Shown here: one piece after another, positions 17,374-47,920 of the stretch
Numbering within the stretch: the first letter of the stretch is position 1
Layout of the letters: each line of letters starts with the position of its first letter
NCBI GenBank assembly: GCA_001793895.1
Contig: MGIT01000001.1
Span: 106,508-170,507, forward strand
DNA: 64,000 nucleotides
Reading direction: 5' to 3'
DNA from: Candidatus Wolfebacteria bacterium RIFOXYB1_FULL_54_12
Lineage (GTDB): Bacteria > Patescibacteriota > Minisyncoccia > UBA6257 > UBA9933
Position numbers and translations under genes: made by a program
Notes under the pieces: model-generated
Seen by the model: the letters and a program-made list of their open reading frames with translations, nothing else
What the model was told of the DNA's origin: nothing
Databases searched by the model: none

Positions 17374-19170
17374 CTATTTAGTTGCACTGATTTTAACCCC
17401 TAATTCCGCATACGGCGCCCGCACGGTTATCTTTCCAGTCTTTGGGTCGCGAAGCACGGAATAGCCACTCATTGTTGCCGTTCCCCTGCTCGGGTCCCGC
17501 GGCAATGCGCGCAGATACCACGGCGCAAGGCAAGACTCGATGGCATATCCGCTCGTACCCAGAACCTTTGCAGTCGTCGGCAACGGTCCGGCAGAACAAG
17601 TAAATGCGCCGTCGTTATCGGCTTCGTTTTTCTTGATGGCGTTGGTGATCGCTTCGACATCAAAACTCCTGCGGGCGTTGCGCTCCAGCGCGGTCTTCGG
17701 CGCGGGGATGCGCGCATCGCCGCCAAGCATCTGCGTGAACAACGATTGCAAAGCGCTATCGATCGATCGCGCATCTTCCGGAGGGAAAATGTCCACAGGC
17801 TTATCGAAGCTGTTACCGGTAAGCGTTACCAGAACGCTCGCACTGCGCGCGCTGTCTTGCGGATCAATCGCAATGTGCATCTGCACTTTGCGTGGCGCCC
17901 CGCCAAGTTTCCCGATCCACACGTGCAAATCATCAATGGCGACGTTGGATAGCATGTCTCGCGCTTCCGGTGAACCATTTTTTTCAAGCCAACGAATAAA
18001 AGCTTCCTTATCGAACGCAAGCACATAGTGCCGCGATGAAACACCGTCAATGACCTCGTCTGCCAATGTACTTTGCACGGTCAAAAATCGATGTTCTTTC
18101 CATGCGGCAATACTCGTACTGCGCTCCTGCTTTGAAAGCCACGGCACAAGCCCACTCGCAGGATCCGTAGGTGATCCAAACTGTTCATGCGCATCTTTGT
18201 CCGACACCATGAACCACTGTTGCTGCAATGCGCTCAAGTTGAGAAACCCAAGGCTGGGCATGGCCGTTATATTTACATAACTGACCCGGTCGATATTGTT
18301 ATAAATAAATCCAAGCGTCGCTTCGCCCACGGCCCACTTGTCCATGGTCGATACGGCGGTAAAGGCCAACCGAGGATCGCCTTCTTGCGTTCCGTCAAAA
18401 GAACCGACGATATTTGATGTAAGCGTCGCCGGCCCATCAGCGGCAAACATGCTCACGAACGGCCCTGCGGCTCCCGTCGTTGCGACCAAGCCGGTCTTTG
18501 CATTTGCCATTTCCACCACGATCTCGCTCGCGAACGTAAACGATTCCACGCTATGCAATCGCGACATAGCCCGATCGATATCCCGCTCGGGCGATATGAA
18601 ATAGGCGGCATAAGCAAACCAAATACCCAGCGCCAATACCGCAATGCCAACGATCGCAATGGCGGTAAATGTAATGATTTTTTTCTTGTTGCGAATTTCG
18701 GAAACAGGTTTTTCTGCAACAGCGGAAGCGGTTGCTTTAAAAACAGAGGCTAACGGAGGTTGCTGTATTCCATTGGCAACGGCAAACGGAACGGTAGGCT
18801 GCAAAGGTGGCACAGGGCGGACCACGCCATGCGCTTCCGTGCGTGCAGGCGCAGGCTCAGGCGACGGCACCGTCGGCTTTGTAATAGGAGCAACCGGGAC
18901 TGCTTCTTGTACCACAGGAACAATCGGTCCGGGAGCTGGCGCTGGTTTAGGTGCCGGAGTCGGCTCGGCAACGATCTCAGGGGTTGGGATGGGATCAGCA
19001 ACCACTTCCTTACGCGCCATGCCCGTAACTCCGGGCGATACCAGTTCAAATATCTCGCGTATTTCTGCTTCATCGGTTCCCCTCCTACGCAAAAACTCGC
19101 GGACTTCCGCTTCACTCACCCCTCCACCCAATTGGTTTTTCACCACTTCAATAAGCGCCTGTTGTATCAT
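17374..19170 (-). CDS. Large membrane-anchored hypothetical protein
   Basis: 598 aa. An N-terminal domain shared with 16900..17235, a Pro-rich linker, one TM, then a large extracytoplasmic domain. Confidence 0.45.
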   Translation of the reverse strand: MIQQALIEVVKNQLGGGVSEAEVREFLRRRGTDEAEIREIFELVSPGVTGMARKEVVADPIPTPEIVAEPTPAPKPAPAPGPIVPVVQEAVPVAPITKPTVPSPEPAPARTEAHGVVRPVPPLQPTVPFAVANGIQQPPLASVFKATASAVAEKPVSEIRNKKKIITFTAIAIVGIAVLALGIWFAYAAYFISPERDIDRAMSRLHSVESFTFASEIVVEMANAKTGLVATTGAAGPFVSMFAADGPATLTSNIVGSFDGTQEGDPRLAFTAVSTMDKWAVGEATLGFIYNNIDRVSYVNITAMPSLGFLNLSALQQQWFMVSDKDAHEQFGSPTDPASGLVPWLSKQERSTSIAAWKEHRFLTVQSTLADEVIDGVSSRHYVLAFDKEAFIRWLEKNGSPEARDMLSNVAIDDLHVWIGKLGGAPRKVQMHIAIDPQDSARSASVLVTLTGNSFDKPVDIFPPEDARSIDSALQSLFTQMLGGDARIPAPKTALERNARRSFDVEAITNAIKKNEADNDGAFTCSAGPLPTTAKVLGTSGYAIESCLAPWYLRALPRDPSRGTATMSGYSVLRDPKTGKITVRAPYAELGVKISATK

Positions 19171-19228
19171 GCCTGCTCAAAAAATAACTATACACTAAGT
19201 ATATCCGACAACGCCCAACAAAACAAAA

Positions 19229-19260
19229 ACCATGCATTAAAATGCATGGTTTTTGTTTTT
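19229..19260. terminator. Intrinsic terminator hairpin (copy 1 of a duplicated terminator)
   Basis: ACCATGCATTaaAATGCATGGTttttgttttt. A near-identical copy lies at 21898-21930. Confidence 0.6.
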
Positions 19261-19408
19261 GTGGTGTTTGTTTGAAAAAGTCAGAACCCATTTTGAGAAA
19301 GATCCCTAACCGCTCCGCTCGGGGTGCGGCGGAAAAAGAAAAAAAAAATTAGGGAGGCGGGAAGAATCCCGCGCCGTCCGAGTTAAAAAATTGGCACTGG
19401 GCGAATTT

Positions 19409-21829
19409 CTAATAAGTCGAATAGGCGTAGTCAAACACGGCATGAGCTACTGTCTCTAAACTTTTAGCACTACATTTATCGAGCGTATCGCCAGTCGTAT
19501 GATATGGCGGGTATTCAAAATCAATCAACAGGAAACTCGGAATTCCAGCTCGATTGAGCGGGGTGTGATCATCTTGGACACTTTGCCCAACCTTATCTTG
19601 AAAAACGTGGCTGTCCACTTTTTGCGCAATACTCCAAAATGCGTCCGCTTGAGACTGGGCATTTTGCACGGATGATTGCTCCTTGTAAATTCTCAAGTCT
19701 TTATCGCACACCATATCAAGAACAAGTGCGGATACCGGTATATTATTCCCATAAAGTTCGCTCAAATGTTCGGAAAAATAAGTAGAACCGAGAGGTCTCC
19801 AATTGCTATAATCACTGCCTTGATTTATATCTCCCTCTTCTCCATCAAAGAAAACGATGTCCACGCCAACACTCGGTATCACATGAGAATTGCCGAGTAT
19901 CCGCGCTAATTCCACAAGGACGGCAACACCCGAAGCAGAGTCGTTGCCCCCTGGCACTGGTTGATCTTTGTATACGTGATCCTTATCCGCAAGTTTTTTA
20001 CTGTCATAATGTGTCGCTAAAATAATGCGCCGTTCTTGGGTTGGGTATAGACGGCCTATGATATTCGATAATTTATGGATTTTACCGTCTGTCCCTTTGT
20101 AATCCCACGATTGTGTAATTACTTCGTTGGTTTGTTCTTTCATCTCCGCAATTAGAAATTTCTGCACGTTTTCATGCCCGGGTGCGCTCATGTGGCGCGG
20201 CCCATACCTTAGTTGTTGGTTTATCACGGCAAGCATTTCGTTGCCATCAATAAACGGTTTTTCCTTAAAAGTACGCCGGAGAACTTCGGACGTTAAGTAC
20301 TCAACCGGAGAAAAATTGTCGGTGAGAATTGGGTATGGAGACAAATTAAATCTGTCCAAGTTGATAACTTTATTTCGAAGCGAGCTAATGATTGAGTTCT
20401 CATTTTGCAGAATTGAAGCCGCGCTCAAATCAATTTTTTTATTACCATTCCATCCAACCAAAATAATATTTTGGGAATCTGTTTTTCCGGGAGTTTCAAC
20501 CGCAAAAAAATAACTATTTGGAAAAACACTTTGAAAAGTTTTTATCTCCGCAAAAATAAGAGATGGCTCTTGTCTTGATAAATCTCCGATTAAATTAGCG
20601 ATAAACAATCCATCGTCAGATAATTTCTCTTTTGCGATGGTAAAAAATTCCTGCGTTGTAAAGTGAGCAGGAATGGAAAAAAGAGAATGGTACGCATCGC
20701 TAAATATAAAATCATATTTTTTATTCGAATCCCAAAGCAGGCGACGACCATCTTCAGTATAATTGTATAGATTTGAATTGTCTTCTACGGCAAAATATTC
20801 TTTTGCTAATGCCAATAACGATGGTTCAATTTCTGAAACATCGAGTGTCGCGTTTGGCAACTCCGCTAAAAGGGCCTTCGGTATAGAATATGCGCCACCG
20901 CCTATAACTAAAGCATTTCGTACGTCCGGCTTGAAAACTTTGTAGAGAGAATAGTATTTCGTGTATTCATAAACGAGATCGGCCGGGTTATCCGAATCGA
21001 GAAACATCGCACCGGAACCACTCCGATCCTGTTGAAAAAATCTTGTCGGCCTGCTTTCAAACATACCATCGTAGATGGTGATTTTTTCGTAAATACCATC
21101 TTTGCTGTACAATACATCGCCTTTTGTTTGCTGAACCGCAACAATGGTAATAAGGGCTAAAGTGACAACGGCAACCAAAGACTGGGTTAGGCGTTTTTTG
21201 TCAAAACCAAATACCGTAAGTGGGATAAATCCGAGAAGGAAGAGAACAACTCCTGTGGCAATAAAAATATGGTCTATGCCAAAATTAGGTATAAGCACAA
21301 AACCCGCAAGTAGACTGCCAATGATACTCCCCAGAGTAGACCAAAAAAATATTTTACCCGAAACACTTCCCACTCCCTGCTCTGGTGCTTGAAGACTCTG
21401 TAATTTTATAGCATAGGGCGACAAAGTGCCGAGCAATAACGCAGGAACAAGGAACAGCAGCAAAGAAGAGATCAGTGGTCCGCTTGTAAGTGAAAGATTT
21501 TTGCTTAAAATTGGAAGAATTATCAAACCAAAAAAATGAAATACAAGGACAAGAAGACCGCTTACGAGAATTATCCCGAAGAACCACCGTAACGATGGGT
21601 GACGATCTGCAAATTTTCCGCCCACATAATATCCTATGCTAAGAGCTGCGAGTATAACACTTATTATACTTGATACAGTAAAAATTGTGTTTCCATAGTG
21701 AGGCGAAAGGACACGGACGGCAACGACTTCAATAATCAAAACACACGCCCCAGTGATAAATACTGAGATTGGCAGCAAATTTTGCTTTAAAAATTTGTTC
21801 ATGTATTTAATCATGGTAGCAGTTTGCAT
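19409..21829 (-). CDS. Fusion protein of three parts: a polytopic membrane domain, a spermidine-synthase-like (PABS-fold) domain and an M28-family peptidase domain
   Basis: About 200 aa of N-terminal TM helices. The PABS-like core (LVIGGGAYSIPKALL...DAYHSLFSIPAHFTTQEFF...DDGLFIANL). C-terminal M28 motifs (HYDS...GGNDSASGVAVLVELARIL...DIVFFDGEEG). Confidence 0.55.
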   Translation of the reverse strand: MQTATMIKYMNKFLKQNLLPISVFITGACVLIIEVVAVRVLSPHYGNTIFTVSSIISVILAALSIGYYVGGKFADRHPSLRWFFGIILVSGLLVLVFHFFGLIILPILSKNLSLTSGPLISSLLLFLVPALLLGTLSPYAIKLQSLQAPEQGVGSVSGKIFFWSTLGSIIGSLLAGFVLIPNFGIDHIFIATGVVLFLLGFIPLTVFGFDKKRLTQSLVAVVTLALITIVAVQQTKGDVLYSKDGIYEKITIYDGMFESRPTRFFQQDRSGSGAMFLDSDNPADLVYEYTKYYSLYKVFKPDVRNALVIGGGAYSIPKALLAELPNATLDVSEIEPSLLALAKEYFAVEDNSNLYNYTEDGRRLLWDSNKKYDFIFSDAYHSLFSIPAHFTTQEFFTIAKEKLSDDGLFIANLIGDLSRQEPSLIFAEIKTFQSVFPNSYFFAVETPGKTDSQNIILVGWNGNKKIDLSAASILQNENSIISSLRNKVINLDRFNLSPYPILTDNFSPVEYLTSEVLRRTFKEKPFIDGNEMLAVINQQLRYGPRHMSAPGHENVQKFLIAEMKEQTNEVITQSWDYKGTDGKIHKLSNIIGRLYPTQERRIILATHYDSKKLADKDHVYKDQPVPGGNDSASGVAVLVELARILGNSHVIPSVGVDIVFFDGEEGDINQGSDYSNWRPLGSTYFSEHLSELYGNNIPVSALVLDMVCDKDLRIYKEQSSVQNAQSQADAFWSIAQKVDSHVFQDKVGQSVQDDHTPLNRAGIPSFLLIDFEYPPYHTTGDTLDKCSAKSLETVAHAVFDYAYSTY

Positions 21830-21897
21830 ATGATTAGTCTATCCGCCATTGTATTTTTTAAGCGAGGACTATTTTCAAAATATTTCACAAAAACAAA

Positions 21898-21930
21898 GAC
21901 CACGCATTTTAATGCATGGTTTTTGTTTTT
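21898..21930. terminator. Intrinsic terminator hairpin (copy 2), abutting the tRNA-Ala 3' end
   Basis: ACCACGCATTttAATGCATGGTttttgtttttgtgg. Confidence 0.55.
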
Positions 21931-21931
21931 G

Positions 21932-22002
21932 TGGACCTAGGCGGAATCGGACCGCCGTCTCAGCAATGCGAATGCCGTGTTCTACCACTAGACTATAGGC
22001 CC
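21932..22002 (-). tRNA. tRNA-Ala (anticodon CGC)
   Basis: Reverse complement GGGCCTATAGTCTAGTGGTAGAACACGGCATTCGCATTGCTGAGACGGCGGTCCGATTCCGCCTAGGTCCA. A G3:U70 identity pair, A73, anticodon loop TTCGCAT. One D-stem mismatch and C55 in the T-loop lower confidence. Confidence 0.65.
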
Positions 22003-22059
22003 TTTTATTAGCCTTTTTATTATAGGGATATTGGGGTAAAAATCAACCGGATTGTCATA

Positions 22060-22185
22060 TACCGGCGTCCGCCCGCAACGATGTAGCAACTTCTGGCGGG
22101 GAGGCCGGAATCCGGTAGTATATTTCCACAAAGACACTTAGTACTCTGGATCCCGATTTTCATCGGGATGACAATACAAAAACTT
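22060..22185. repeat. Palindromic hairpin repeats
   Basis: Sequence ggccggaatccgg ... ggatcccgattttcatcgggatgacaatac. Confidence 0.7.
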
Positions 22186-26665: not shown

Positions 26666-27760
26666 TCAACGCATAACCCCACCTCCGATGACAACTCCAT
26701 CGGCATCGTAAAATACGGCAGATTGTCCCACGGCAACAAACCGTTGCGGTTCATCGAATTGCAACCGATAGGCCTCACCATCGGCGACCAATGTCGCCGC
26801 AAACAACGGCTGGCGATAGCGGATGCGCACCATGACCGGAATGGACTTCGGGGGGGCTATGGCGCACATGCCCATGAAATTAAGTTCAACAAGGCCAATA
26901 TCCGCACATGCCTGCTCAAGCAAATGATCATCATGCGAAACCGTGATGACATTGCTTGCGACATCTTTTTTGACCACAAAATACGCCGGTCCGCCCCCGA
27001 CATGCAATCCGTGCCGTTGCCCGATGGTATAAAACCACACACCCTCGTGCTCGCCCACCTTCACTCCGTCGACGGTAACAATGTCGCCCTTCCGTTTCGG
27101 CAGATACTGTTCCAAAAATTCACGCAACGATATCTTCCCCAAAAAACAAATACCTTGGGAATCTTTTTTCTGCGCCGTCGGAAGTCCCGCGGCCGCCGCA
27201 ATCTCCCTGATCTTCGGCTTTTCATAGGCACCGATCGGAAACAAACAATGCCGCAGTTGCTCCTGCGTAAGCGTCCACAAAAAATAACTCTGATCTTTAT
27301 TCCCATCAATCCCTTTCTGTAATGAGTAAGTAGTTTCCTGTTTTTTGTTATCGGTTATAGGTTGTAGGTTATAGGTTGCGCTTCGCGCATAATGCCCCGT
27401 CGCCACATAATCAGCCCCCAACGCAAGCGCCTTTTGCAAAAACACGCCAAACTTGATTTCCTTGTTGCACATCACATCCGGGTTCGGGGTAATGCCGTTG
27501 CGATACCCGTTGACCAAATATTCCACCACGAATTGTTTGTATTCTTCTTCAAGATCGATGACATAAAACGGGATGCCCAAATGTTCGGCAACGCGCCGCG
27601 CATCTTCCGCTTCGCGGTCTTGGCATCCGTCCATGTTATATCCTTTAATGAACGCGCCGATCACATCATAAGTCCCCTGCTCGCGCAACAAAAAAGCGGC
27701 GACACTCGAATCGACGCCGCCCGACATCATGACAAATACTTTTGGCTTTAAACCATTCAT
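26666..27760 (-). CDS. mnmA: tRNA-specific 2-thiouridylase MnmA, with an in-frame tandem-repeat insertion
   Basis: PP-loop SGGVDSS. ATGHYAR. KDQSYFLW. An inserted ATYNLQPITDNKKQ segment is encoded by the (GGTTAT)-type repeat at 27346-27379. Confidence 0.85.
   Translation of the reverse strand: MNGLKPKVFVMMSGGVDSSVAAFLLREQGTYDVIGAFIKGYNMDGCQDREAEDARRVAEHLGIPFYVIDLEEEYKQFVVEYLVNGYRNGITPNPDVMCNKEIKFGVFLQKALALGADYVATGHYARSATYNLQPITDNKKQETTYSLQKGIDGNKDQSYFLWTLTQEQLRHCLFPIGAYEKPKIREIAAAAGLPTAQKKDSQGICFLGKISLREFLEQYLPKRKGDIVTVDGVKVGEHEGVWFYTIGQRHGLHVGGGPAYFVVKKDVASNVITVSHDDHLLEQACADIGLVELNFMGMCAIAPPKSIPVMVRIRYRQPLFAATLVADGEAYRLQFDEPQRFVAVGQSAVFYDADGVVIGGGVMR
27346..27379. repeat. (GGTTAT/GGTTGT)n-type tandem repeat inside the mnmA coding sequence
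   Basis: Sequence ttgttatcggttataggttgtaggttataggttgcg. Confidence 0.8.
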
Positions 27761-29106: not shown

Positions 29107-30858
29107 TTACAAATCCCCCTTCTCGCTCTTGTGTGGTTGCTTTGGTCGTTCTTCGGGGGTAGCTTCTTTTCTTTTTTGTAATGATTCTTCGATTGCCTTT
29201 TTCAGGTCATCAATATTGACCGCCTTTTTCTCGAACACATGTTTTGGCCTATCCTGCGGCATACTGCGAAGTCTATCGTCCATCGCTGGGCGATGCGGCA
29301 CAGGGCTGGCGCCACGATCTCCGCTAAATGGCCGCACGCTCGTCGGCCTATCGGTCAACGGCCCGTCCTGGGATGCCCGCGCAAACGACGGTCTGTCCTG
29401 CCTGCCCGCCGTAGTGTTAGCGGAGGAGGAATCCGCCGGCTGGCGGACGAAGGGTTTACGCTCGAAAGAAGGCTTCGGCGCTTGCGCACGAGGGGTTAGA
29501 GTCGAGCTCAACGACCGCTCGTCACGGCGCATAACCTTATCTGCCATGGATGTCTTACCCGACCCCATATATTCCTTGGCGATCATTTCATCCACCAACG
29601 CCTTAGGCATGGAATAATTTCTGCGGGAGTTTTCAATAATGACATCCTCGTAATTCGGCTGCGGGATTGGATACGGCGGCAAGGTCTCTGCCGAAAATGG
29701 TCTCGATGCCTGGCCGTCAACCAACAATTTAAGGTAAATATGCCGGTTTGACAAGCCGATCATATCTTGCGGCGTAAACTCGGGTTCGAATTCCTTTTCA
29801 AAAAATACGGCGTCGATGGCGCCAACGCGAAACATAGCCAAGGTGCCAATGTTGCCGACGATTGCCTCTGCAAGCCCTTCTTCTTTTTTAAGCTGATCGA
29901 CATACTGGTGGGCCAGCGTCAAGCCAAGTCCGTATTTGCGCGCCTCGGCGAAGATCTTCGTAAATGAACCGGTAGAAAAGTTTTGAAACTCGTCGATGTA
30001 CAAAAAGAACGGCCTGCGTTCGCTCTCGGGAATATCGATGCGGCTCATGGCGGCAAGCTGGATTTTGGTAATGATCATGGCGCCGAGCAATGCGGAATTG
30101 TCTTCGCCGAGACGGCCCTGCGAAAGATTGCAGATCAATATCTTGCCTTCATCCATTGCCTTGCGCATGTCGATGGTCGACTTCGGCTGGCCGATGATGT
30201 TACGGATGACCGGATTGGAACTGAACTGCCCTACCTTGTTCTGCAACGGTGCAATGGCCTCGGTCATGAACTTGTCGGTATATTTTGCAAATTCGTTTTC
30301 CCAGAACGACTTAATGACCGGGTCCTTTAAATTGGAAACGACCTTCAGGCGGTACTCTTTCTCCGCAAGCATGCGCATAATACTCAGTAAGGTCGTTCCC
30401 GGATATTCCAAAAGCGCCAACAGGGTATTGTTCAAAATATATTCCATGCGCGCAGACCATGCGTCCACCCAGATTTTTTGAAACACACCCATCACCGCCG
30501 ACGCGACAAGGTGCGCATGTTCGTCACCGACGCGTTCAAGCGGATTAAATCCGACCGGATTTTCGATATCGGCCGGATTGACATAAATGACATCCTTGAT
30601 GCGGTCTTCTGGCACATGCTTAAGCAACTCTTCGACGAATTCGCCATGCGGGTCGAGCACGGCAACACCAAATCCGTTCTTGATGTCGTTGATCATCAAG
30701 TTTTTCATCATGGTGGTCTTACCCGTGCCGCTCTTCCCGACGATGTACATATGCCGCAGGCGGTCGTTCATTTTGATGCCAAAATTAACGCTTTGATTGC
30801 GAAAATTCGTCTTTGCAAAAATTGAAATTTCTTTGTTGCTCATAGGGCTATTTGTCAT
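29107..30858 (-). CDS. P-loop ATPase of the TraD/VirD4/HerA (type IV coupling protein-like / DUF87) type, with a long disordered C-terminal tail
   Basis: Walker A (IVGKSGTGKTT) followed by VLDPHGE. Walker B (FFLYIDEFQNF). GLTLAHQ. The last 190 aa are low-complexity P/S/R/D-rich. Confidence 0.5.
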   Translation of the reverse strand: MTNSPMSNKEISIFAKTNFRNQSVNFGIKMNDRLRHMYIVGKSGTGKTTMMKNLMINDIKNGFGVAVLDPHGEFVEELLKHVPEDRIKDVIYVNPADIENPVGFNPLERVGDEHAHLVASAVMGVFQKIWVDAWSARMEYILNNTLLALLEYPGTTLLSIMRMLAEKEYRLKVVSNLKDPVIKSFWENEFAKYTDKFMTEAIAPLQNKVGQFSSNPVIRNIIGQPKSTIDMRKAMDEGKILICNLSQGRLGEDNSALLGAMIITKIQLAAMSRIDIPESERRPFFLYIDEFQNFSTGSFTKIFAEARKYGLGLTLAHQYVDQLKKEEGLAEAIVGNIGTLAMFRVGAIDAVFFEKEFEPEFTPQDMIGLSNRHIYLKLLVDGQASRPFSAETLPPYPIPQPNYEDVIIENSRRNYSMPKALVDEMIAKEYMGSGKTSMADKVMRRDERSLSSTLTPRAQAPKPSFERKPFVRQPADSSSANTTAGRQDRPSFARASQDGPLTDRPTSVRPFSGDRGASPVPHRPAMDDRLRSMPQDRPKHVFEKKAVNIDDLKKAIEESLQKRKEATPEERPKQPHKSEKGDL

Positions 30859-31029: not shown

Positions 31030-31117
31030 TTCCGTTATCCGTTATCGGTCATCCGTTTTCGTTTTCGGTTATAGGTTATTAGTTGTAGGTTTTAGGTTAT
31101 TGGTTATCAGTCATTGG
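31030..31117. repeat. Tandem (CCGTTAT)/(GGTTAT)n repeat array abutting the stop codon of 31118..32461
   Basis: Sequence ccgttatccgttatcggtcatccgttttcgttttcggttataggttattagttgtaggttttaggttattggttatcagtcattggttattc. Confidence 0.8.
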
Positions 31118-32461
31118 TTATTCTATCGGCAAATTCTCCGGAGGCTCGCCTTTCTTTGCCTCGATACGGCGCATACTCGGCGCGGTAACCAACGATGACG
31201 GAACATGGTAAAGCGTAGCCAACTCTTCTATGGAAAAGACGGGAGCCTTCTTTATCATGATCCGCTGGCGGTATGCAAAGAACATTGCCCTCTTTTTCAA
31301 AAATTCCTGATGCTTTTTCCACGCCGGAAACAGCCATGCCTTGAAACCTTTCGGCGGGTTTACCGACGTATCCCTGTTTGGCTTGAACGAATTGATATGC
31401 TGGGAACCGAATTGCTTGAATGAGCCGATGATCCCCCCTATATAGGACTTATGAAACGTTTCCTGCCGATCGATAAACACTGCACGCACGCTCACTTCAT
31501 AGCACAGTTTGGATATTTTTCCTTCAATGCCTTCAAGTACTTCCTTTTCAGAAAAGCTCAAAGACGCAATCGTCTTGGGTGGAGCGTCGGATTTTTTCGG
31601 CGGCTCGGGCCATTCCGGAGTGCTTATGAATACAAGAAAAAAATTCTTGATCCACATGACAAGATGATCAAATATGCTCAATTTAGGAGCGACCTTCACC
31701 TCACGGCCTAACATTTTATCGACGATCGCCTGTCCCTTCTTTTTGTAGTCGCTCGTTTTTTCGCCGGTCGGCTTGGATATATATTGCACGAAGATCATTT
31801 CATTCTCGCGGAGCTTCGACATGGTTTCCAAAATGACCGTAAGCGGATCAAGTCGTTGCTCTTCCTCTTTCTCTTCAAAATAGGCGTATGTCTTAATCGG
31901 ATATGCGCTGTCTTTGTCGAGAACCATATCGACGCCCCATACATCATAAACATCGTTGGGCAACATCATCGGCAAGAAGCTGAGATAGTCTTCGACAAGG
32001 GCTATTTCCGCGGCGGGATATTGCGCAAACAATGCGGACTCCACCAAATTGCGGTGCTCGGCAGGTACGCGCACATAAAAATATACACCGCCGCTTCGCC
32101 CGACCATTTCAAACGAAAGGGCGTTTTGAACCTTCCCTTTGATATTTTCATCCCACCATTTGATCTCGCCGGCATAGGTGCCATGTACCGTGGCAAACAC
32201 CTGTTCCATGGATTTCGGACTGCGCAAATTTTCCTTGGGGATGCGCAATTCAAGCACGACCCACTTTTGCGCCTTCTTTGCCGCTTTTTTGTTCGAGTCG
32301 ATGTACAGGTCCCAAAGATAGAACGCCAAAACAACCGGAACGACGGCCCACCATACGTACGAAAAGACCTCGCCAATGCTTTGCGCAATGCCAAGGATGA
32401 TATTCTGCACGACCGGTGTGATCGAAAAATAGTCCAGTAGAAAGTCTGAAATGTTTGCCAT
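31118..32461 (-). CDS. Hypothetical membrane protein (N-terminal TM pair plus a large soluble domain), co-directional and adjacent to the TraD/VirD4-like ATPase
   Basis: 447 aa. TM region VVQNIILGIAQSIGEVFSYVWWAVVPVVLAFYLW. No recognisable motifs. Confidence 0.4.
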   Translation of the reverse strand: MANISDFLLDYFSITPVVQNIILGIAQSIGEVFSYVWWAVVPVVLAFYLWDLYIDSNKKAAKKAQKWVVLELRIPKENLRSPKSMEQVFATVHGTYAGEIKWWDENIKGKVQNALSFEMVGRSGGVYFYVRVPAEHRNLVESALFAQYPAAEIALVEDYLSFLPMMLPNDVYDVWGVDMVLDKDSAYPIKTYAYFEEKEEEQRLDPLTVILETMSKLRENEMIFVQYISKPTGEKTSDYKKKGQAIVDKMLGREVKVAPKLSIFDHLVMWIKNFFLVFISTPEWPEPPKKSDAPPKTIASLSFSEKEVLEGIEGKISKLCYEVSVRAVFIDRQETFHKSYIGGIIGSFKQFGSQHINSFKPNRDTSVNPPKGFKAWLFPAWKKHQEFLKKRAMFFAYRQRIMIKKAPVFSIEELATLYHVPSSLVTAPSMRRIEAKKGEPPENLPIE

Positions 32462-32519
32462 GTATCTCTTTTAGTATATCGCAAAATGGTCCAACAAAAA
32501 AGAGACACTCGTCTCTTTT

Positions 32520-32578
32520 TTGCATTCCGTTATCCGTTATCCGTTTTCGGTTATTGGTTATTGGTTATCCGTTATTTA
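32520..32578. repeat. Tandem (CCGTTAT)/(GGTTAT)n repeat array abutting the stop codon of 32576..33619
   Basis: Sequence ccgttatccgttatccgttttcggttattggttattggttatccgttatttacg. Confidence 0.8.
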
Positions 32579-33619
32579 CGCAACATGATATGTTCCGTTG
32601 TCCAATCGTTTGAAATATTTTTTGTTCTGCAAGTTAAGCAGAATGGTGTTTTCCTTCAAGAATCGCTGAGAGGAAACCAACTGCACGACCTCATGCTGGG
32701 CAAGCGGGCCATTGTCAACAAGCACCTGCTTGATGACGTCCTTTGCCGTACCCGGGAAAAATCCATGCTCGGTCAAACCATACATACCGCGACCTACAAG
32801 GACAAATCGTCCATCCTTGATCAATTCATTATGGATCGTCTGTGCATACACCGGCTTTTTATCGAACCCGACCGAATTGATCGTAGTGGCGATATCGCGG
32901 AAGTGCATCGGCTTGCCATGCTTGCGCAAGATAAGATATGCCTTTGCGCGCGCGGTCTTCGGCGTGATCTCTTCCCAATGGGAAAGACCAAAGTCGGAAT
33001 ACGGATTCACGGAAAACTGTTTCGAGATGCCGAGGTAGTTCATGCCGACGGCGCGGTCGACGTTCGAAGCGGTCGCAACCTGCTTGAAGTGCGGATCGAA
33101 TTGACCCTTGAAGACTATTTCTTCTTTCTTGCCGCCAAAGAACTTGACCGCCTTTTCAATGAAAGTCTCTGCCTTTTTGACGACAGCCTTGTCCGAAGCC
33201 CAAAACCCATAGGAATGATCGCTTTCAGCATGGTACATCGGCTCGCCGGCAATGCGGAAAAGGAAGCGGAACTGATACTTGTTCACGGTCGCATCTTTCA
33301 ACACCGTGCGCATGTCTTCGACAAAATCATCTTCCTTGCGAACGCCGCCCAAGGCAACGAGTTGCTCCTTGGCGATTTGCACCAGGCGATCGCCGCCTGC
33401 ATCGCTAAAACGTTCCCGCGCCAAACGAAGCCCTTCTGCCTCTATCTGGCGCACGCGCTCACGGGTAATGCCGTTGCGTTCGCCGAGTTCCTGCAGGGTC
33501 TTTTCCTGTCCATCGCGAAGTCCAAAACGTTCCTCGACTATTTCTCGCTGTCGAGCGGACAATGCGTGCGTTACCTGTTCGATGATATTGCCTGTGTTCT
33601 TCATAAGAGTTGAATCCAA
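32576..33619 (-). CDS. Sigma-70 region-4-like HTH domain protein fused to a C-terminal domain of unknown function
   Basis: The N-terminus LSARQREIVEERFGL...KTLQELGERNGITRERVRQIEAEGLRLAR is a region-4 HTH. The remaining about 270 aa are unassigned (possible winged-helix/HARE-HTH-like end). Confidence 0.45.
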   Translation of the reverse strand: MDSTLMKNTGNIIEQVTHALSARQREIVEERFGLRDGQEKTLQELGERNGITRERVRQIEAEGLRLARERFSDAGGDRLVQIAKEQLVALGGVRKEDDFVEDMRTVLKDATVNKYQFRFLFRIAGEPMYHAESDHSYGFWASDKAVVKKAETFIEKAVKFFGGKKEEIVFKGQFDPHFKQVATASNVDRAVGMNYLGISKQFSVNPYSDFGLSHWEEITPKTARAKAYLILRKHGKPMHFRDIATTINSVGFDKKPVYAQTIHNELIKDGRFVLVGRGMYGLTEHGFFPGTAKDVIKQVLVDNGPLAQHEVVQLVSSQRFLKENTILLNLQNKKYFKRLDNGTYHVA

Positions 33620-45319: not shown

Positions 45320-45505
45320 TTCAATTTGTCATTCCGAGCCTGCTGTCATCCTGAACTCGTTTCAGGATCTCGCGTACAAACAGTGAGCTTCTGAAATAAA
45401 TTCAGAATGACACTTTAAAAAATATTGTCATTCCCGTCCGCCCACCAGCAGAGGAATCCAGTACCCCGCATTGTCATTCCCGCGAAAGCGGGAATCTAGT
45501 ACACT
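45320..45505. repeat. Cluster of palindromic hairpin repeats, including an exact GTCATCCTGAACTCGTTTCAGGATC unit
   Basis: The same 25-mer also occurs at 563-587 and 47833-47857. Confidence 0.8.
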
Positions 45506-46236: not shown

Positions 46237-46244
46237 TGCGGATA

Positions 46245-46292
46245 AAAAACGCTTAATAATATTGCTATAGCAATATTATTAAGCGTTTTTTA
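46245..46292. terminator. Perfect-palindrome intrinsic terminator after scpA
   Basis: Sequence aaaaaacgcttaataatattgctatagcaatattattaagcgtttttt. Confidence 0.65.
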
Positions 46293-46341
46293 TTTCAGAA
46301 TTTCTCTGACTCTTGTCGCAGTCATCCATGTCACCGCCCTT

Positions 46342-46393
46342 ATACCCTTTGGTGATAGAATATATCCACGATCAGGCGGTTATCGGGTTTCAT
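46342..46393. repeat. Left direct repeat, a duplicate of the last 17 codons and stop of the SDR gene
   Basis: 49/52 nt identical to 47041-47092. Confidence 0.85.
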
Positions 46394-46394
46394 A

Positions 46395-47030
46395 TTACAT
46401 CGGTATTAGTTTAGCGCCCTCACTTTGTATCTTCTTATATATTCTTTCTATTCCATCAATATGTCTCACCCCTCTTTCATTATTACCCGCTTGCGCTTCA
46501 TGAATATTTTTTATCCAATCTTTTAACATTAGGATGCCTCCTTGCTTAATCAACTCATAAAGATCCTTTGGTTTCACCATAATTACAAGAGACTCTCCTA
46601 ATTTATTAATTCCACTCTCATACTCATCAACTTCTTTATCAGAAAATTTATTCGACGCCAGCGCCATATAAATACCATCACTTTCATTAGATAACCCGAA
46701 GAAATGGACTAAGGAATTTCTAAGATGCCAAAGACGTTCACTGCTTAATTTATGCCACCGTGTATTTTTAACATATTCCACATTTTGGCCTATTAAACAA
46801 AATGTACGGAGCCAAGAAGTAAACCGCTTGCTTTGTGTTTCGCATTTTCCATCATATTCATACCAGTAACTTGCAAGAATATCTAACAAGCTAAAAACAA
46901 TTATCGCTTGAATTCTAGGAGAAGAAGGATAATCACATAAAAAAATACTGTTGATATCTCTTATCACATCGTTAATGAAATCAACCACCTCCTTCTTCCG
47001 CTCATTATGCTTTTCAATCATTTGAACCAA
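46395..47030 (-). CDS. Hypothetical protein encoded by an AT-rich inserted cassette; possible HEPN-like (R-x4-H) motif
   Basis: 211 aa, Lys/Asn/Ile/Tyr-rich, GC far below the surroundings. RNSLVH motif. Sits exactly between two 52-bp direct repeats. Confidence 0.5.
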   Translation of the reverse strand: MVQMIEKHNERKKEVVDFINDVIRDINSIFLCDYPSSPRIQAIIVFSLLDILASYWYEYDGKCETQSKRFTSWLRTFCLIGQNVEYVKNTRWHKLSSERLWHLRNSLVHFFGLSNESDGIYMALASNKFSDKEVDEYESGINKLGESLVIMVKPKDLYELIKQGGILMLKDWIKNIHEAQAGNNERGVRHIDGIERIYKKIQSEGAKLIPM

Positions 47031-47038
47031 ATATAATA

Positions 47039-47770
47039 TTATACCCTTTGATGATAGAATGTATCCACGATTAGGCGGTTATCGGGTTTCATTTCTCCGA
47101 TGACCGTCTTGTAAATGACCTCCGCGACATCTGCGGGCGTATGGTGCGCCTCTGTGCCTTTGAACAGTTCTTTGAACATGTTCGTCCCTACTGACCCGGG
47201 GGTAATGGTGATCACATCGATCCCCGACTGCACCAGCTCGGCCGACAACGCCTGCGTAAACGCGATCACGCCGGCCTTGGTCGCCGAATAGACGGCAAGC
47301 TCGGGAATGCCACAGAGTCCCGCTCCCGATGAAATATTAATGATGCATTTTCGTTTCACGGTACAACCGTCATGATCGGTTTCCGCAACGCCGGTATCCA
47401 TGCTCTTCAAAGCCTCCTGCGTAACAATAAACATGCCGCCCAGGTTCACATTGACCATGCTTTGCCACTCGGCTTCCGTCGTATCCGCAAATCGCTTGCG
47501 CTGGGCAACGCCCGCATTGTTGATAAGCACATCGATGCCGCCAAAACGCTTCTTCGCTTCCGCAATGGCAAGGGCGACCTGCGCCCGATCGCACACATCC
47601 CCTTCTATGACCAATGTGCGATCAATAGGAAGCGTCATCGCTTCCGAGCTTGTCGCACCATGGGAATAAATGACAACATTCGCACCTTCGGCAATGAACT
47701 TTTTCGCGGTTTCCAATCCGATGCCCGTCGCCCCACCGGTAATGAATACTGTCTTTCCTTTGATATCCAT
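47039..47770 (-). CDS. Short-chain dehydrogenase/reductase (SDR) family oxidoreductase
   Basis: TGGATGIG Rossmann motif, NNAG, catalytic YxxxK (YSATKAG). Start MDIKGKTVFITGG at 47770. Confidence 0.8.
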   Translation of the reverse strand: MDIKGKTVFITGGATGIGLETAKKFIAEGANVVIYSHGATSSEAMTLPIDRTLVIEGDVCDRAQVALAIAEAKKRFGGIDVLINNAGVAQRKRFADTTEAEWQSMVNVNLGGMFIVTQEALKSMDTGVAETDHDGCTVKRKCIINISSGAGLCGIPELAVYSATKAGVIAFTQALSAELVQSGIDVITITPGSVGTNMFKELFKGTEAHHTPADVAEVIYKTVIGEMKPDNRLIVDTFYHQRV

Positions 47771-47794
47771 AATGGTATTAGTATAGCATAACTT

Positions 47795-47920
47795 TTTGTC
47801 ATTCCGGCGGAGGCCGGAATGACAACATAAGAAGTTTGTCATCCTGAACTCGTTTCAGGATCTCATGGTAGTGCGATGAGATTCCGGCCTCCGCCGGAAT
47901 GACAAATGCGCGGTTCTATT
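47795..47920. repeat. Palindromic hairpin repeat cluster
   Basis: Sequence gtcattccggcggaggccggaatgac ... gtcatcctgaactcgtttcaggatc ... gattccggcctccgccggaatgac. Confidence 0.8.

Follow-up and report, generated by a model that had tools for sequence, protein, structure and literature searches.

A horizontally acquired gene behind tRNA-Ala in a Wolfebacteria lineage encodes a predicted membrane-anchored fusion of a spermidine-synthase-fold domain and a glutaminyl-cyclase-like domain

How does a single gene for a three-domain protein come to lie between two nearly identical hairpins directly behind a tRNA gene, and what might its product do? We addressed both questions in a 64,000-nt stretch of Candidatus Wolfebacteria bacterium RIFOXYB1_FULL_54_12 (GCA_001793895.1, contig MGIT01000001.1, positions 106,508-170,507 of the forward strand), hereafter the window. 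An initial annotation had read the longest ORF as a protein of three parts, and this was borne out by Pfam, NCBIfam, PDB profile and structure evidence (Table 1). Homologs and nucleotide conservation point to the methionine of MNKFLK at position 21802 as the likely true start, giving a protein of 797 aa, and the in-frame ATG further upstream, at 21829, falls within the leader region. The leader also contains an extended -10-like element, TGCTACCAT, at 21813-21821, which reads TGCTACAAT or TGCTATAAT in relatives.

Table 1. Features of the locus in window coordinates
Feature	Position	Strand	Remark
Hairpin copy 1 (distal)	19220..19264		45-nt palindrome
Non-coding tail of the block	19265..19408	minus	144 nt, stop codon to hairpin copy 1
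ORF of the three-domain protein	19409..21829	minus	longest ORF, 806 aa
C-terminal M28 domain, type II glutaminyl-cyclase-like	19409..20260	minus	residues 524-806 and stop
Middle domain, spermidine-synthase fold	20261..21121	minus	residues 237-523
N-terminal seven-helix membrane domain	21122..21802	minus	residues 10-236, from the MNKFLK start
Leader and promoter region	21803..21889	minus	putative promoter role, from sequence
Hairpin copy 2 (proximal), tRNA-Ala terminator	21890..21934		45-nt palindrome
tRNA-Ala(CGC)	21931..22002	minus	ARAGORN; Rfam tRNA 57.2 bits

A foreign block inserted behind tRNA-Ala

The two flanking hairpins described in the initial annotation are indeed near-identical (45 nt, 91% identity in direct register), and copy 2 overlaps the 3' end of the tRNA by 3-4 nt instead of abutting it as originally described. 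Their assignment to a direct orientation is ambiguous, since each copy is palindromic: the two loops are reverse complements of one another, and in the inverted register the similarity reaches 79 nt at 80%, most of it the palindrome itself. The hairpin core occurs exactly twice in the 64 kb, where shuffled sequences give an expectation of 0, and flank-to-flank similarity is limited to the hairpin. Each copy folds with -28 to -33 kcal/mol (z -5.5 to -7.3) and carries a U-run on either strand. This combination of stem and U-run, with conserved pairing, is that of an intrinsic terminator, and an outgroup (L096) has compensatory changes in the stem, from CCATGCAT/ATGCATGG to TCACGCAT/ATGCGTGA.

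Relatives of this genome preserve the locus in its empty state. In two sister contigs (L094 and L095), whose flanks are 90-96% identical to ours, window position 19264 is joined to 21890 through one hairpin, and the order of tRNA-Ala, one hairpin and the neighbouring gene, with nothing between them, is seen in the sister genome and in three outgroups. The outgroups (L096, L098 and L099) keep TyrRS, tRNA-Ala and a homolog of the neighbouring 598-aa protein and lack the three-domain gene; tRNA-Ala lies ahead of the 598-aa homolog in all three as well as in L095, and in L096, which has a single hairpin, the neighbour protein is 74% identical. The right arm of hairpin copy 1 and its flank, GTTGGGCG, match the continuation at the empty site of the sister genome, while the right arm of copy 2 differs from the single hairpin there by two substitutions. 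All 10 of the fetched filled contigs, from several samples and assemblies, have the hairpin doubled (14 contigs carry the three-domain protein in all), and each empty contig has it once. The initial annotation had allowed that it might just be a reused terminator; this does not agree with a hairpin that is single in the sister and outgroups, double solely with the block, and found beside no other gene in the window or in the 95 fetched loci. The block so delimited, 19265-21889, spans 2,625 bp and consists of a putative promoter with leader, one gene and the 144-nt tail. The tail gave 0 Rfam matches and 0 partial tRNAs at E<=10, has no relative among the fetched loci and is missing at the empty site of the sister.

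The composition and the wider distribution of the gene tell of its origin. Its GC content is 0.41 against about 0.51 in the flanks, and homologs that are 75-85% identical lie in unrelated gene neighbourhoods and have a GC content of 0.40-0.44 despite host values of 0.34-0.53; over the whole family, gene and host GC correlate with r=0.89. Nucleotide similarity to six of the related loci (L011, L013-L017) begins 5-40 nt ahead of the upstream ATG (21829), which puts it some 30-70 nt before the MNKFLK start, and ends ~8 nt past the stop codon. No neighbour gene is conserved across the family loci. A tRNA lies within 500 nt at 36 of 76 loci (background, 0.06 tRNA per kb), and its 3' end points toward the gene in 36 of 44 cases. 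Flanking repeats around the gene were seen in none of the other genomes, which counts against an insertion.

A history with no insertion at all would have the hairpins reused independently and the gene ancestral here, the sister having lost it by recombination between the repeats. Such a deletion would leave exactly one hairpin, and the sister hairpin can be read as a chimera of the copy 2 left arm and the copy 1 right arm. We nevertheless hold this history to be very improbable: three progressively more distant syntenic outgroups are also without the gene, its GC content (0.41, in a genome of 0.51) is the one that close homologs have in unrelated genomes, and no other terminator in the window or among the fetched loci has the hairpin. 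The suggestion in the initial annotation that the repeats mark an acquired block is thus upheld by the empty site in the sister, by the three outgroups, by the contrast in GC content and by the varied neighbourhoods of close homologs. This Wolfebacteria lineage acquired a foreign block immediately behind tRNA-Ala(CGC), the insertion duplicated the hairpin, itself a host sequence, and the gene has recently passed between distantly related Patescibacteria. Because the 45-nt host hairpin was duplicated, the tRNA and the new gene each end in a terminator; copy 1, which follows the inserted gene and precedes the 598-aa gene, is now predicted to act as an intrinsic terminator in both directions. For gene gain in a streamlined genome, nature has here provided an experiment of unusual clarity, with filled, empty and outgroup states all available.

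Candidate routes of integration

The locus shares with tRNA-associated integrative elements the repeats, the position at a tRNA 3' end and the precise empty site in relatives. Such elements also have a substantial 3' part of the tRNA in the repeat and an integrase or recombinase of their own; here the repeat takes in just 3-4 nt of the tRNA, the block is one gene, and no integrase or recombinase Pfam family was found in it or among the called genes within +/-10 kb. An insertion sequence or transposon was also considered and rejected, as a transposase is missing, the palindrome makes up most of the inverted similarity, and the duplication is 45 nt long; target duplications of insertion sequences are far shorter.

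Two further duplications, of 44-54 nt, occur in the 64-kb window, also at gene 3' ends. This gives three footprints of similar style close to one another, at tRNA-Phe, tRNA-Ala and a dehydrogenase gene, none of them with a recombinase.

The target was the 3' flank of tRNA-Ala(CGC), at its palindromic terminator. The palindrome may have served as an att-like site for recombination by an enzyme supplied in trans, or its base may have been cleaved in a staggered fashion, again by an enzyme in trans. These two routes are the least certain part of our interpretation.

General recombination could also have produced the block. The donor would have been a close relative in which the gene already followed this tRNA-Ala terminator. 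Its DNA, once taken up, would have entered either through homology-facilitated illegitimate recombination or as a circular fragment integrated by one crossover (~50 nt of homology), and the repeats would then be a trace of that homology, with no att site or staggered cut involved. In favour of this, the repeats are 91-94% identical and of host type, and at 44-54 nt they are about as short as RecA-type recombination allows; the block has no recombinase, and an A-tract motif, AAAAACAAAAACAAGCAC, like the left arm of the hairpin, lies downstream of the gene in two related loci (L013 and L015) and partly in a third (L014). Against this, the motif is not enriched family-wide, and the scheme merely shifts the original acquisition to an unseen relative. 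It must also account for three unrelated targets in one window, all at gene 3' ends and with similar repeat length, a regularity that argues for a mechanism that measures length itself or prefers certain sites. We consider general recombination unlikely, and keep to an att-like or staggered-cut integration as the preferred route.

Islets that lack an integrase and lie between att-type direct repeats at tRNA or protein-gene 3' ends occur as cis-mobilizable elements (CIMEs) of Streptococcus ICEs and as tycheposon remnants in Prochlorococcus. As in those, low-GC cargo lies behind a tRNA gene between direct repeats some tens of bases long, relatives have a precise empty site, and the block has no recombinase. 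The repeat here differs in being palindromic and nearly all terminator, with 3-4 nt of tRNA, and the cargo is a single gene; a cognate integrase or parent element was not found.

Domains of the fusion protein and their family

The AF2 model places the seven helices of the N-terminal membrane domain at residues 2-45, 49-76, 80-111, 117-147, 153-183, 185-206 and 211-234 (pLDDT 91.9). Pfam MFS_1 matches residues 23-208 below its gathering score, and a profile search found no PDB relative of this domain. Lys and Arg are distributed unequally over its loops, with 10.2 per sequence on the N-terminus and loops 2-3, 4-5 and 6-7 and 0.24 on loops 1-2, 3-4 and 5-6. Together with C708 and C786, invariant or nearly so among 98 family sequences, this pattern would place the N-terminus in the cytoplasm and both catalytic domains outside the cell.

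The middle domain was identified by Pfam Spermine_synth (PF01564; residues 299-451, E 6e-7, above the gathering score), and residues 28-512 match the NCBIfam model NF037959, 'fused MFS/spermidine synthase', from end to end (E 5.8e-73, 246.2 bits against a cutoff of 40, model positions 2-480 of 480). An N-terminal beta domain followed by a Rossmann fold, as in spermidine synthases, is present. In place of the GxG(D/E)G of true spermidine synthases the protein has GGGAYS, and position 313 is Ala in 90, Val in 6, Ile in 1 and Ser in 1 of the 98 sequences and never acidic. E333, D360 and D378 are invariant or nearly so, E333 being aligned to the EID/EIE motif of METTL13, and the D(S/T)xDP putrescine motif lacks its second Asp. 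The acidic residue of GxG(D/E)G selects dcSAM over SAM and separates the fungal methyltransferase NHMT from spermidine synthases (PMC10349129). Judged from the alignment, the transferase domain has intact cofactor-binding residues and lacks the acidic residue at the dcSAM-specifying position. The PABS/aminopropyltransferase label of the initial annotation is right as to fold and calls for a qualification, since the domain lacks this residue, by which dcSAM-using spermidine synthases are defined (PMC10349129).

The C-terminal domain matches Pfam Peptidase_M28 (PF04389; residues 589-801, E 3.6e-28, 99.1 bits against 21.3), a family that includes cyclases too. Its best PDB matches are 3gux (1.3e-31) and 6qro (1.3e-29), followed by 4fuu and 6qql; cyclases score 1e-25 to 1e-31 and aminopeptidases just 1e-4 to 1e-10. 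Foldseek gave target-normalised TM scores of 0.87-0.90, the whole domain being modelled as the cyclase alpha/beta fold. By PDB matches and structure, glutaminyl-cyclase-like, which the initial annotation had offered as an alternative, is the better label than peptidase. The equivalents of the human zinc ligands D159, E202 and H330 (D630, E665 and H777) and of the catalytic E201, D248 and D305 (E664, D705 and D754) are all present. Inspection of the catalytic residues of both enzymatic domains, as the initial annotation had recommended, thus found the cyclase set in place and the dcSAM-specifying residue of the middle domain missing. Zinc chemistry is not universal in the family, since D630N and H777A occur, as linked changes, in 20 of the 98 members. 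Ser follows the bridging Asp in 94 of 98 sequences (S631), as in animal cyclases, where bacteroidal enzymes have Gly and aminopeptidases Asn or Asp (PMC7948796). Position 776, equivalent to human W329 and PgQC W298, is Phe in 60, Tyr in 29, His in 5 and Trp in 2 of 98; the Trp that precedes the His ligand in type II cyclases is thus replaced by Tyr or Phe, closer to aminopeptidases, which have Tyr here (PMC7948796). A co-catalytic M28 aminopeptidase is disfavoured by the Ser at 631, in place of Asn or Asp, and by scores nearer to the cyclases.

Taken at face value, the database names imply that a membrane-bound aminopropyltransferase for polyamines, possibly working with an MFS-type transporter of polyamines, is fused to an ordinary M28 aminopeptidase. 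The name of NF037959, the Spermine_synth match above the Pfam cutoff, the weak MFS_1 match, the fold with its N-terminal beta domain and the presence of five of five M28 metal-site positions are all compatible with this. We consider it quite unlikely, given Ala at position 313 in 90 of 98 sequences and an acidic residue in none, the missing putrescine-motif Asp, and scores far under the spermidine-synthase equivalog cutoffs (TIGR00417, 32 against 249.6; PRK00811, 31.9 against 260; PRK03612, 67.4 against 472; PRK04457, 67.7 against 304). The nearest solved relatives of the middle domain by profile are 3gjy (1.6e-17), which has GGGA too, and the C-domain of the N-terminal methyltransferase METTL13 (1.2e-14), with true spermidine synthases at about 1e-12. 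The membrane domain has seven helices against 12 in an MFS transporter and matches no transporter in the PDB, the C-terminal domain is closer to cyclases than to aminopeptidases and carries Ser next to the bridging Asp, and both catalytic domains have a predicted location outside the cell. The name 'fused MFS/spermidine synthase' is probably misleading.

The initial annotation called the architecture rare. It is in fact common in Patescibacteria: the three-domain form makes up at least 120 protein clusters at 90% identity, and 263 related loci, three- and two-domain forms counted together and nearly all in Patescibacteria, were found among 185,579 species-representative genomes. The two-domain members belong to the same clade, and their proteins stop at the domain boundary. 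The fusion protein thus belongs to a large Patescibacteria family with a predicted 7-TM anchor, a transferase domain and an optional C-terminal zinc domain resembling type II glutaminyl cyclases. A search of the literature found no paper describing the three-domain architecture.

Proposed function and comparison with known systems

The overall explanation that we favour, and regard as reasonably probable, is a foreign block behind tRNA-Ala that would encode an extracytoplasmic N-terminal-modifying enzyme and may have integrated by an att-like or staggered-cut route. By analogy with NHMT and with the cyclases of Bacteroidetes, the function may be modification by pyroglutamate formation and N-alkylation. 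Both catalytic domains, outside the cell, would work on freshly exposed N-termini of exported proteins: the cyclase domain would convert N-terminal Gln (or Glu) to pyroglutamate, and the transferase domain would alkylate, most likely methylate, an N-terminal amine or a side chain, much as NHMT, a 7-TM enzyme of fungi, does. Surface and secreted proteins would thereby be shielded from aminopeptidases. Gln is at +1 in 8.4% of 203 signal-peptide candidates, 2.6x background, among 1,087 ORFs of carrier genomes, by a crude and unreliable predictor; as far as such a predictor can show, this is no clear Q-rule like that of Bacteroidetes, which weighs against the proposed function. So does the cofactor, which would have no obvious source for a SAM-dependent domain on the outside of a bacterial cell.

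Patescibacteria live attached to other cells and rely on surface and secreted proteins, about whose maturation, to our knowledge, very little is known. A widespread and horizontally exchanged fusion of a cyclase with an NHMT-like transferase offers a testable hypothesis, the N-terminal capping of exported proteins. A bolder proposition, possible but on the doubtful side, combines an unrecognised N-terminal capping machine with a lineage that integrates promoter-bearing single-gene cassettes at gene 3' ends. The capping machine may be a bacterial counterpart, and likely a relative, of NHMT whose 7-TM domain would pass a SAM-type cofactor across the membrane; the cassette mechanism may duplicate about 45-55 nt of target. 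We know of no described transposase or integrase class that obviously yields single-gene insertions with duplications of ~45-55 nt.

Among known proteins, those of NF037959 are defined by a model and a name that leave out the cyclase domain, and the polyamine synthesis and MFS transport implied by that name are unsupported by the sequence features. The best solved relatives of the middle domain, the METTL13 C-domain (an eEF1A N-terminal methyltransferase, 5wcj) and the orphan 'spermidine synthase' 3gjy, likewise share the fold of spermidine synthases and lack the acidic residue that specifies dcSAM, but are soluble and cytoplasmic and about 20% identical.

The type II cyclases PgQC, TfQC and BtQC of Bacteroidetes are membrane-anchored and cap the products of signal peptidase I (PMC7948796, PMC5837995, PMC10653852). 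Our protein shares with them the zinc triad and the catalytic Glu and Asp residues, and is also predicted to be membrane-anchored and to act outside the cytoplasm. They differ in their anchor, a lipid instead of a fused 7-TM transferase, in the second ligand (Asp in the bacteroidal enzymes, an animal-like Glu here), in the residue after the bridging Asp (Gly, against an animal-like Ser here) and in having Trp before the His ligand, where our protein has Tyr/Phe.

The fungal enzyme NHMT (Aspergillus nidulans AN4663; Batth et al. 2023) consists of a 7-TM domain and a spermidine-synthase-like methyltransferase that acts on signal-peptide-cleaved proteins, and its authors report the 7-TM sequence to be restricted to filamentous fungi (PMC10349129). 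It is eukaryotic, ER-resident and without a cyclase domain. In both proteins seven N-terminal helices precede a soluble METTL13-like domain of the spermidine-synthase fold. Both have the acidic residue of GxG(D/E)G replaced (I322 in NHMT, A313 here), conserve the cofactor-binding Glu (E333 here) and are annotated as 'spermidine synthase family'. These likenesses suggest that the architecture of fungal NHMT has a large bacterial counterpart.

A block bracketed by two hairpins at the tRNA-Ala site

Rifle groundwater yielded the Candidatus Wolfebacteria MAG that holds the window, and the protein is encoded on 14 contigs from several samples. The two hairpins, the tRNA-Ala and the three-part ORF described in the initial annotation were all found again, but the "direct" orientation given to the repeats is ambiguous because each hairpin copy is palindromic. 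The loops of the two copies are reverse complements, and the inverted register stretches the similarity to 79 nt at 80%. Similarity between the flanks is confined to the hairpin, whose core occurs at only two sites in 64 kb (shuffled sequence gives 0). Each copy folds with an energy of -28 to -33 kcal/mol (z of -5.5 to -7.3) and carries a U-run on either strand; owing to this stable fold and the U-runs on both strands, each looks like a bidirectional intrinsic terminator.

Positions of the gene, the hairpins and two further duplication sites in the window
Feature	Position	Strand	Remark
Longest ORF, 806 aa	19409..21829	minus	
Likely CDS, 797 aa	19409..21802	minus	chosen because most homologs start at the MNKFLK methionine
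tRNA-Ala(CGC)	21931..22002	minus	same strand as the ORF
Hairpin copy 1, 45 nt	19220-19264		one palindrome, 91% identical to copy 2
Hairpin copy 2, 45 nt	21890-21934		
ORF, 208 aa	46395..47021	minus	GC 0.34, the lowest in the window; no Pfam match
Short-chain dehydrogenase gene	47039..47842		
Direct repeat, 44 nt	7608-7868		95% identical, spacing 217; brackets 173 nt behind tRNA-Phe

The GC content of the gene is 0.41 against 0.51 for its flanks. A search pattern that leads from the 3′ end of tRNA-Ala, over one hairpin-sized gap, to the region upstream of the 598-aa neighbor gene, which lies beyond copy 1, matched two metagenome contigs. In the sister contig L095 (893 kb), which shares its JGI sample with the filled contig L007, the equivalent of window 17390-19264 runs directly into that of 21890-22049, the two sharing a single hairpin, with flanks 90 to 96% identical to the window. 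Three outgroups, located through homologs of the 598-aa neighbor (74%, 45% and 41% identity), keep the synteny of Cu-ATPase, MurB, TyrRS, tRNA-Ala and the 598-aa homolog and lack the gene; the nearest of them, L096, has a single hairpin with compensatory stem changes. The acquired block proposed initially is thus strongly supported by the empty sister site, three gene-less outgroups, the GC contrast and the single versus double hairpin. The hairpin pattern is present twice on each filled contig, once on each empty contig and in no other place in 95 loci; it is thus the host tRNA-Ala terminator, doubled on arrival of a 2,625-bp block (19265-21889). No further repeat-bracketed inserts were found at the sister and outgroup loci.

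Two other irregularities were seen at this site. The spacer between tRNA-Ala and TyrRS cannot be aligned between the window (22050-22162) and L095 (10104-10217), both flanks being 90 to 98% identical, and each version has its own GTCATCCCGA...GGGATC-type palindromic element. In outgroup L096, a duplicated tRNA-Ala 5′ fragment (GGGGCCTGTAGTCTAGTGGTA..., 6735-6760) precedes the intact tRNA-Ala by ∼80 nt, which suggests an earlier rearrangement at the same locus.

Transfer of the gene and possible routes of insertion

Sequence comparison indicates that the gene has moved recently between lineages. Homologs of 75 to 85% identity sit in unrelated neighborhoods and hold a GC content of 0.40 to 0.44 while their hosts span 0.34 to 0.53; family-wide, gene GC tracks host GC (r of 0.89). 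Nucleotide similarity to close relatives begins no more than ∼70 nt ahead of the conserved start and ends ∼8 nt past the stop codon. It takes in a conserved TGCTACAAT-like element just before the MNKFLK methionine, and the cassette appears to bring its own promoter. A tRNA is found within 500 nt of the gene in 36 of 76 loci, the background being 0.06 tRNA per kb, and across the family the tRNA 3′ end points toward the gene in 36 of 44 cases. Other genomes showed no repeats flanking the gene apart from the likeness of neighboring tRNAs.

How the block was inserted is the least certain part of our reading, and three routes can be inferred. A recombinase acting in trans may have used the palindrome as an att-like site for site-specific recombination, the palindrome may have been cut with a stagger at its base and the ends filled in, or the block may have entered by recombination through ∼50 nt of homology with DNA of a close relative. 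Neither the block nor the genes called up to 10 kb on either side of it include a recombinase. An integron-type reading was rejected, as the GTTRRRY-like GTTGGGC beside copy 1 stands in the empty site as well and we saw no IntI gene, and phage carriage was set aside, as the viral contigs of IMG/VR gave no relative.

Several candidate remnants were also discarded. The tail of the block (19265-19408) has no relative at any fetched locus, its CCCGAGCGGAGCG element occurs once in the window, and Infernal gave no partial tRNA at E ≤ 10 for a degraded tRNA 3′ half there. A 21-nt repeat resembling a tRNA 3′ end upstream of the gene in L013, which carries an 83%-identical homolog, received no Infernal call as a tRNA fragment and fell within the flank-repeat null; it is only suggestive. 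An A-tract motif downstream of the gene in three homolog loci (L013, L014 and L015) showed no family-wide enrichment (0.22 versus 0.13 per kb), and most near matches to it are the window's own hairpins. Ahead of the gene, locus L013 also contains a large segment duplicated in inverted orientation (883-6587): ORFs of 425 and 141 aa, genes for T4SS pilins, tRNA-Lys and tRNA-Leu are all present twice, the two copies being inverted. The duplication is either genuine or a product of misassembly.

Other duplications and repeats in the window

A second single-gene, low-GC insertion is recognized by sequence comparison at 46340-47092. The 208-aa ORF sits exactly after the dehydrogenase stop codon, and behind it the last 54 nt of the dehydrogenase gene recur at 94% identity; in the sister (L100) and the outgroup (L101) at this site the ORF is absent and the dehydrogenase directly adjoins ScpA. 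Behind tRNA-Phe, the proximal 44-nt copy consists of the final 20 nt of the tRNA and 24 nt downstream, and the 173-nt insert holds a terminator hairpin and another fragment resembling a tRNA 3′ end, in opposite orientation. This stretch resembles an att-type footprint left by an insertion long ago. Taken together, the three duplications of 44 to 54 nt, each at the 3′ end of a gene, suggest a common mechanism in this lineage.

Repeats of other kinds were observed as well. A 29-nt REP-like palindrome, TTGTCATTCCCGCGGAGGCGGGAATCCAC, has seven dispersed copies (1450, 1684, 15470, 16116, 45471, 47796 and 51538), and a related element, TGTCATCCTGAACTCGTTTCAGGATCTC, occurs at 45344 and 47837, with similar elements in sister L095 at 6451 and 8036. 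Heptamer-periodic arrays (GGTTATA/GGTTGTA/GGTTATT), possibly iterons or regulator binding sites, lie in three intergenic regions (27307-27401, 31042-31129 and 32517-32590), on either side of the genes that encode a coupling ATPase of VirD4/TrwB type (29107..30858) and a DUF8128 protein. A perfect 52-nt palindrome between convergent genes (46242-46293; ATAAAAAACGCTTAATAATATTGCTA / TAGCAATATTATTAAGCGTTTTTTAT), also present in sister L100, is probably a bidirectional terminator.

Domain organization and proposed function

Pfam assigns Peptidase_M28 to residues 589-801 (3.6e-28) and Spermine_synth to 299-451 (6e-7), with MFS_1 below threshold, and residues 28-512 match the NCBIfam model NF037959, "fused MFS/spermidine synthase" (5.8e-73). 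That name is probably misleading, and all spermidine-synthase equivalog models score far under their cutoffs. Public annotation calls the protein "hypothetical" or "Peptidase M28 domain-containing." An AlphaFold2 model built from 98 homologs is of high confidence (pLDDT 91.9, pTM 0.88). In it, seven membrane helices take up residues 2-234; a beta domain of four strands and a Rossmann domain come next, and an alpha/beta domain forms the C-terminal part.

The C-terminal domain retains the zinc triad Asp630, Glu665 and His777 and the catalytic Glu664, Asp705 and Asp754. The residue directly after the bridging Asp is Ser631, which is shared with animal cyclases, the aminopeptidases having Asn or Asp there (PMC7948796). 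The Trp preceding the His ligand is Tyr or Phe here, and Cys708 and Cys786 are (near-)invariant in the 98-sequence family alignment. In 20 of the 98 three-domain sequences, Asp630Asn and His777Ala are linked, removing two of three zinc ligands while Glu664, Glu665 and Asp705 stay; the cyclase-like domain of this subclade is probably metal-free or repurposed.

Among solved structures, the middle domain is matched best by 3gjy (1.6e-17) and by METTL13 in its N-terminal methyltransferase domain (1.2e-14); genuine spermidine synthases follow at ∼1e-12. Its glycine motif is GGGAYS, residue 313 is acidic in none of the 98 sequences, and Glu333, Asp360 and Asp378 are (near-)invariant. A PDB profile search gave no relative of the membrane domain. 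Because Lys and Arg number 10.2 per sequence on the N terminus and loops 2-3, 4-5 and 6-7 and 0.24 on the remaining loops, the N terminus is predicted to be cytoplasmic and both catalytic domains extracellular.

The protein is a novel variant assembled from known domain types, and we found no published description of the three-domain architecture. It was first taken to be rare; the cluster and genome-scan counts show instead that it is common in Patescibacteria. The top 120 clusters (90% identity) are nearly all ∼770 to 830 aa, with M28 in all and the spermine-synthase domain in all but one, and a scan of 185,579 species-representative genomes gave 263 related loci, of three-domain or two-domain form, nearly all in Patescibacteria of many classes and a few under other labels. 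The two-domain form stops cleanly at the domain boundary, and no separate cyclase gene lies within 8 kb of it. There is no conserved neighbor or operon partner; leaving aside a generic GTPase cluster (15 loci), any one family recurs in at most 7 of the 77 loci.

The fusion of cyclase and transferase, predicted to face outward, is probably a dedicated enzyme that caps the N termini of exported proteins, a functional hypothesis open to testing. A crude Q-rule test gave no strong or clear signal, and we know of no cofactor supply outside the cell. By analogy, such a role fits the fusion of both domain types, with their predicted outward orientation. The type II glutaminyl cyclases of Bacteroidetes are anchored to the inner membrane on its outer side, where they cyclize the Gln uncovered by signal peptidase I cleavage and so stabilize exported proteins (PMC7948796, PMC5837995, PMC10653852). 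The fungal N-terminal histidine methyltransferase NHMT, whose substrate is the N-terminal His of secreted LPMOs, combines seven helices with a METTL13-like domain of spermidine-synthase fold carrying a non-acidic residue in GxG(D/E)G (PMC10349129). The first two domains of the Patescibacteria protein share this layout, and the comparison is one of layout.
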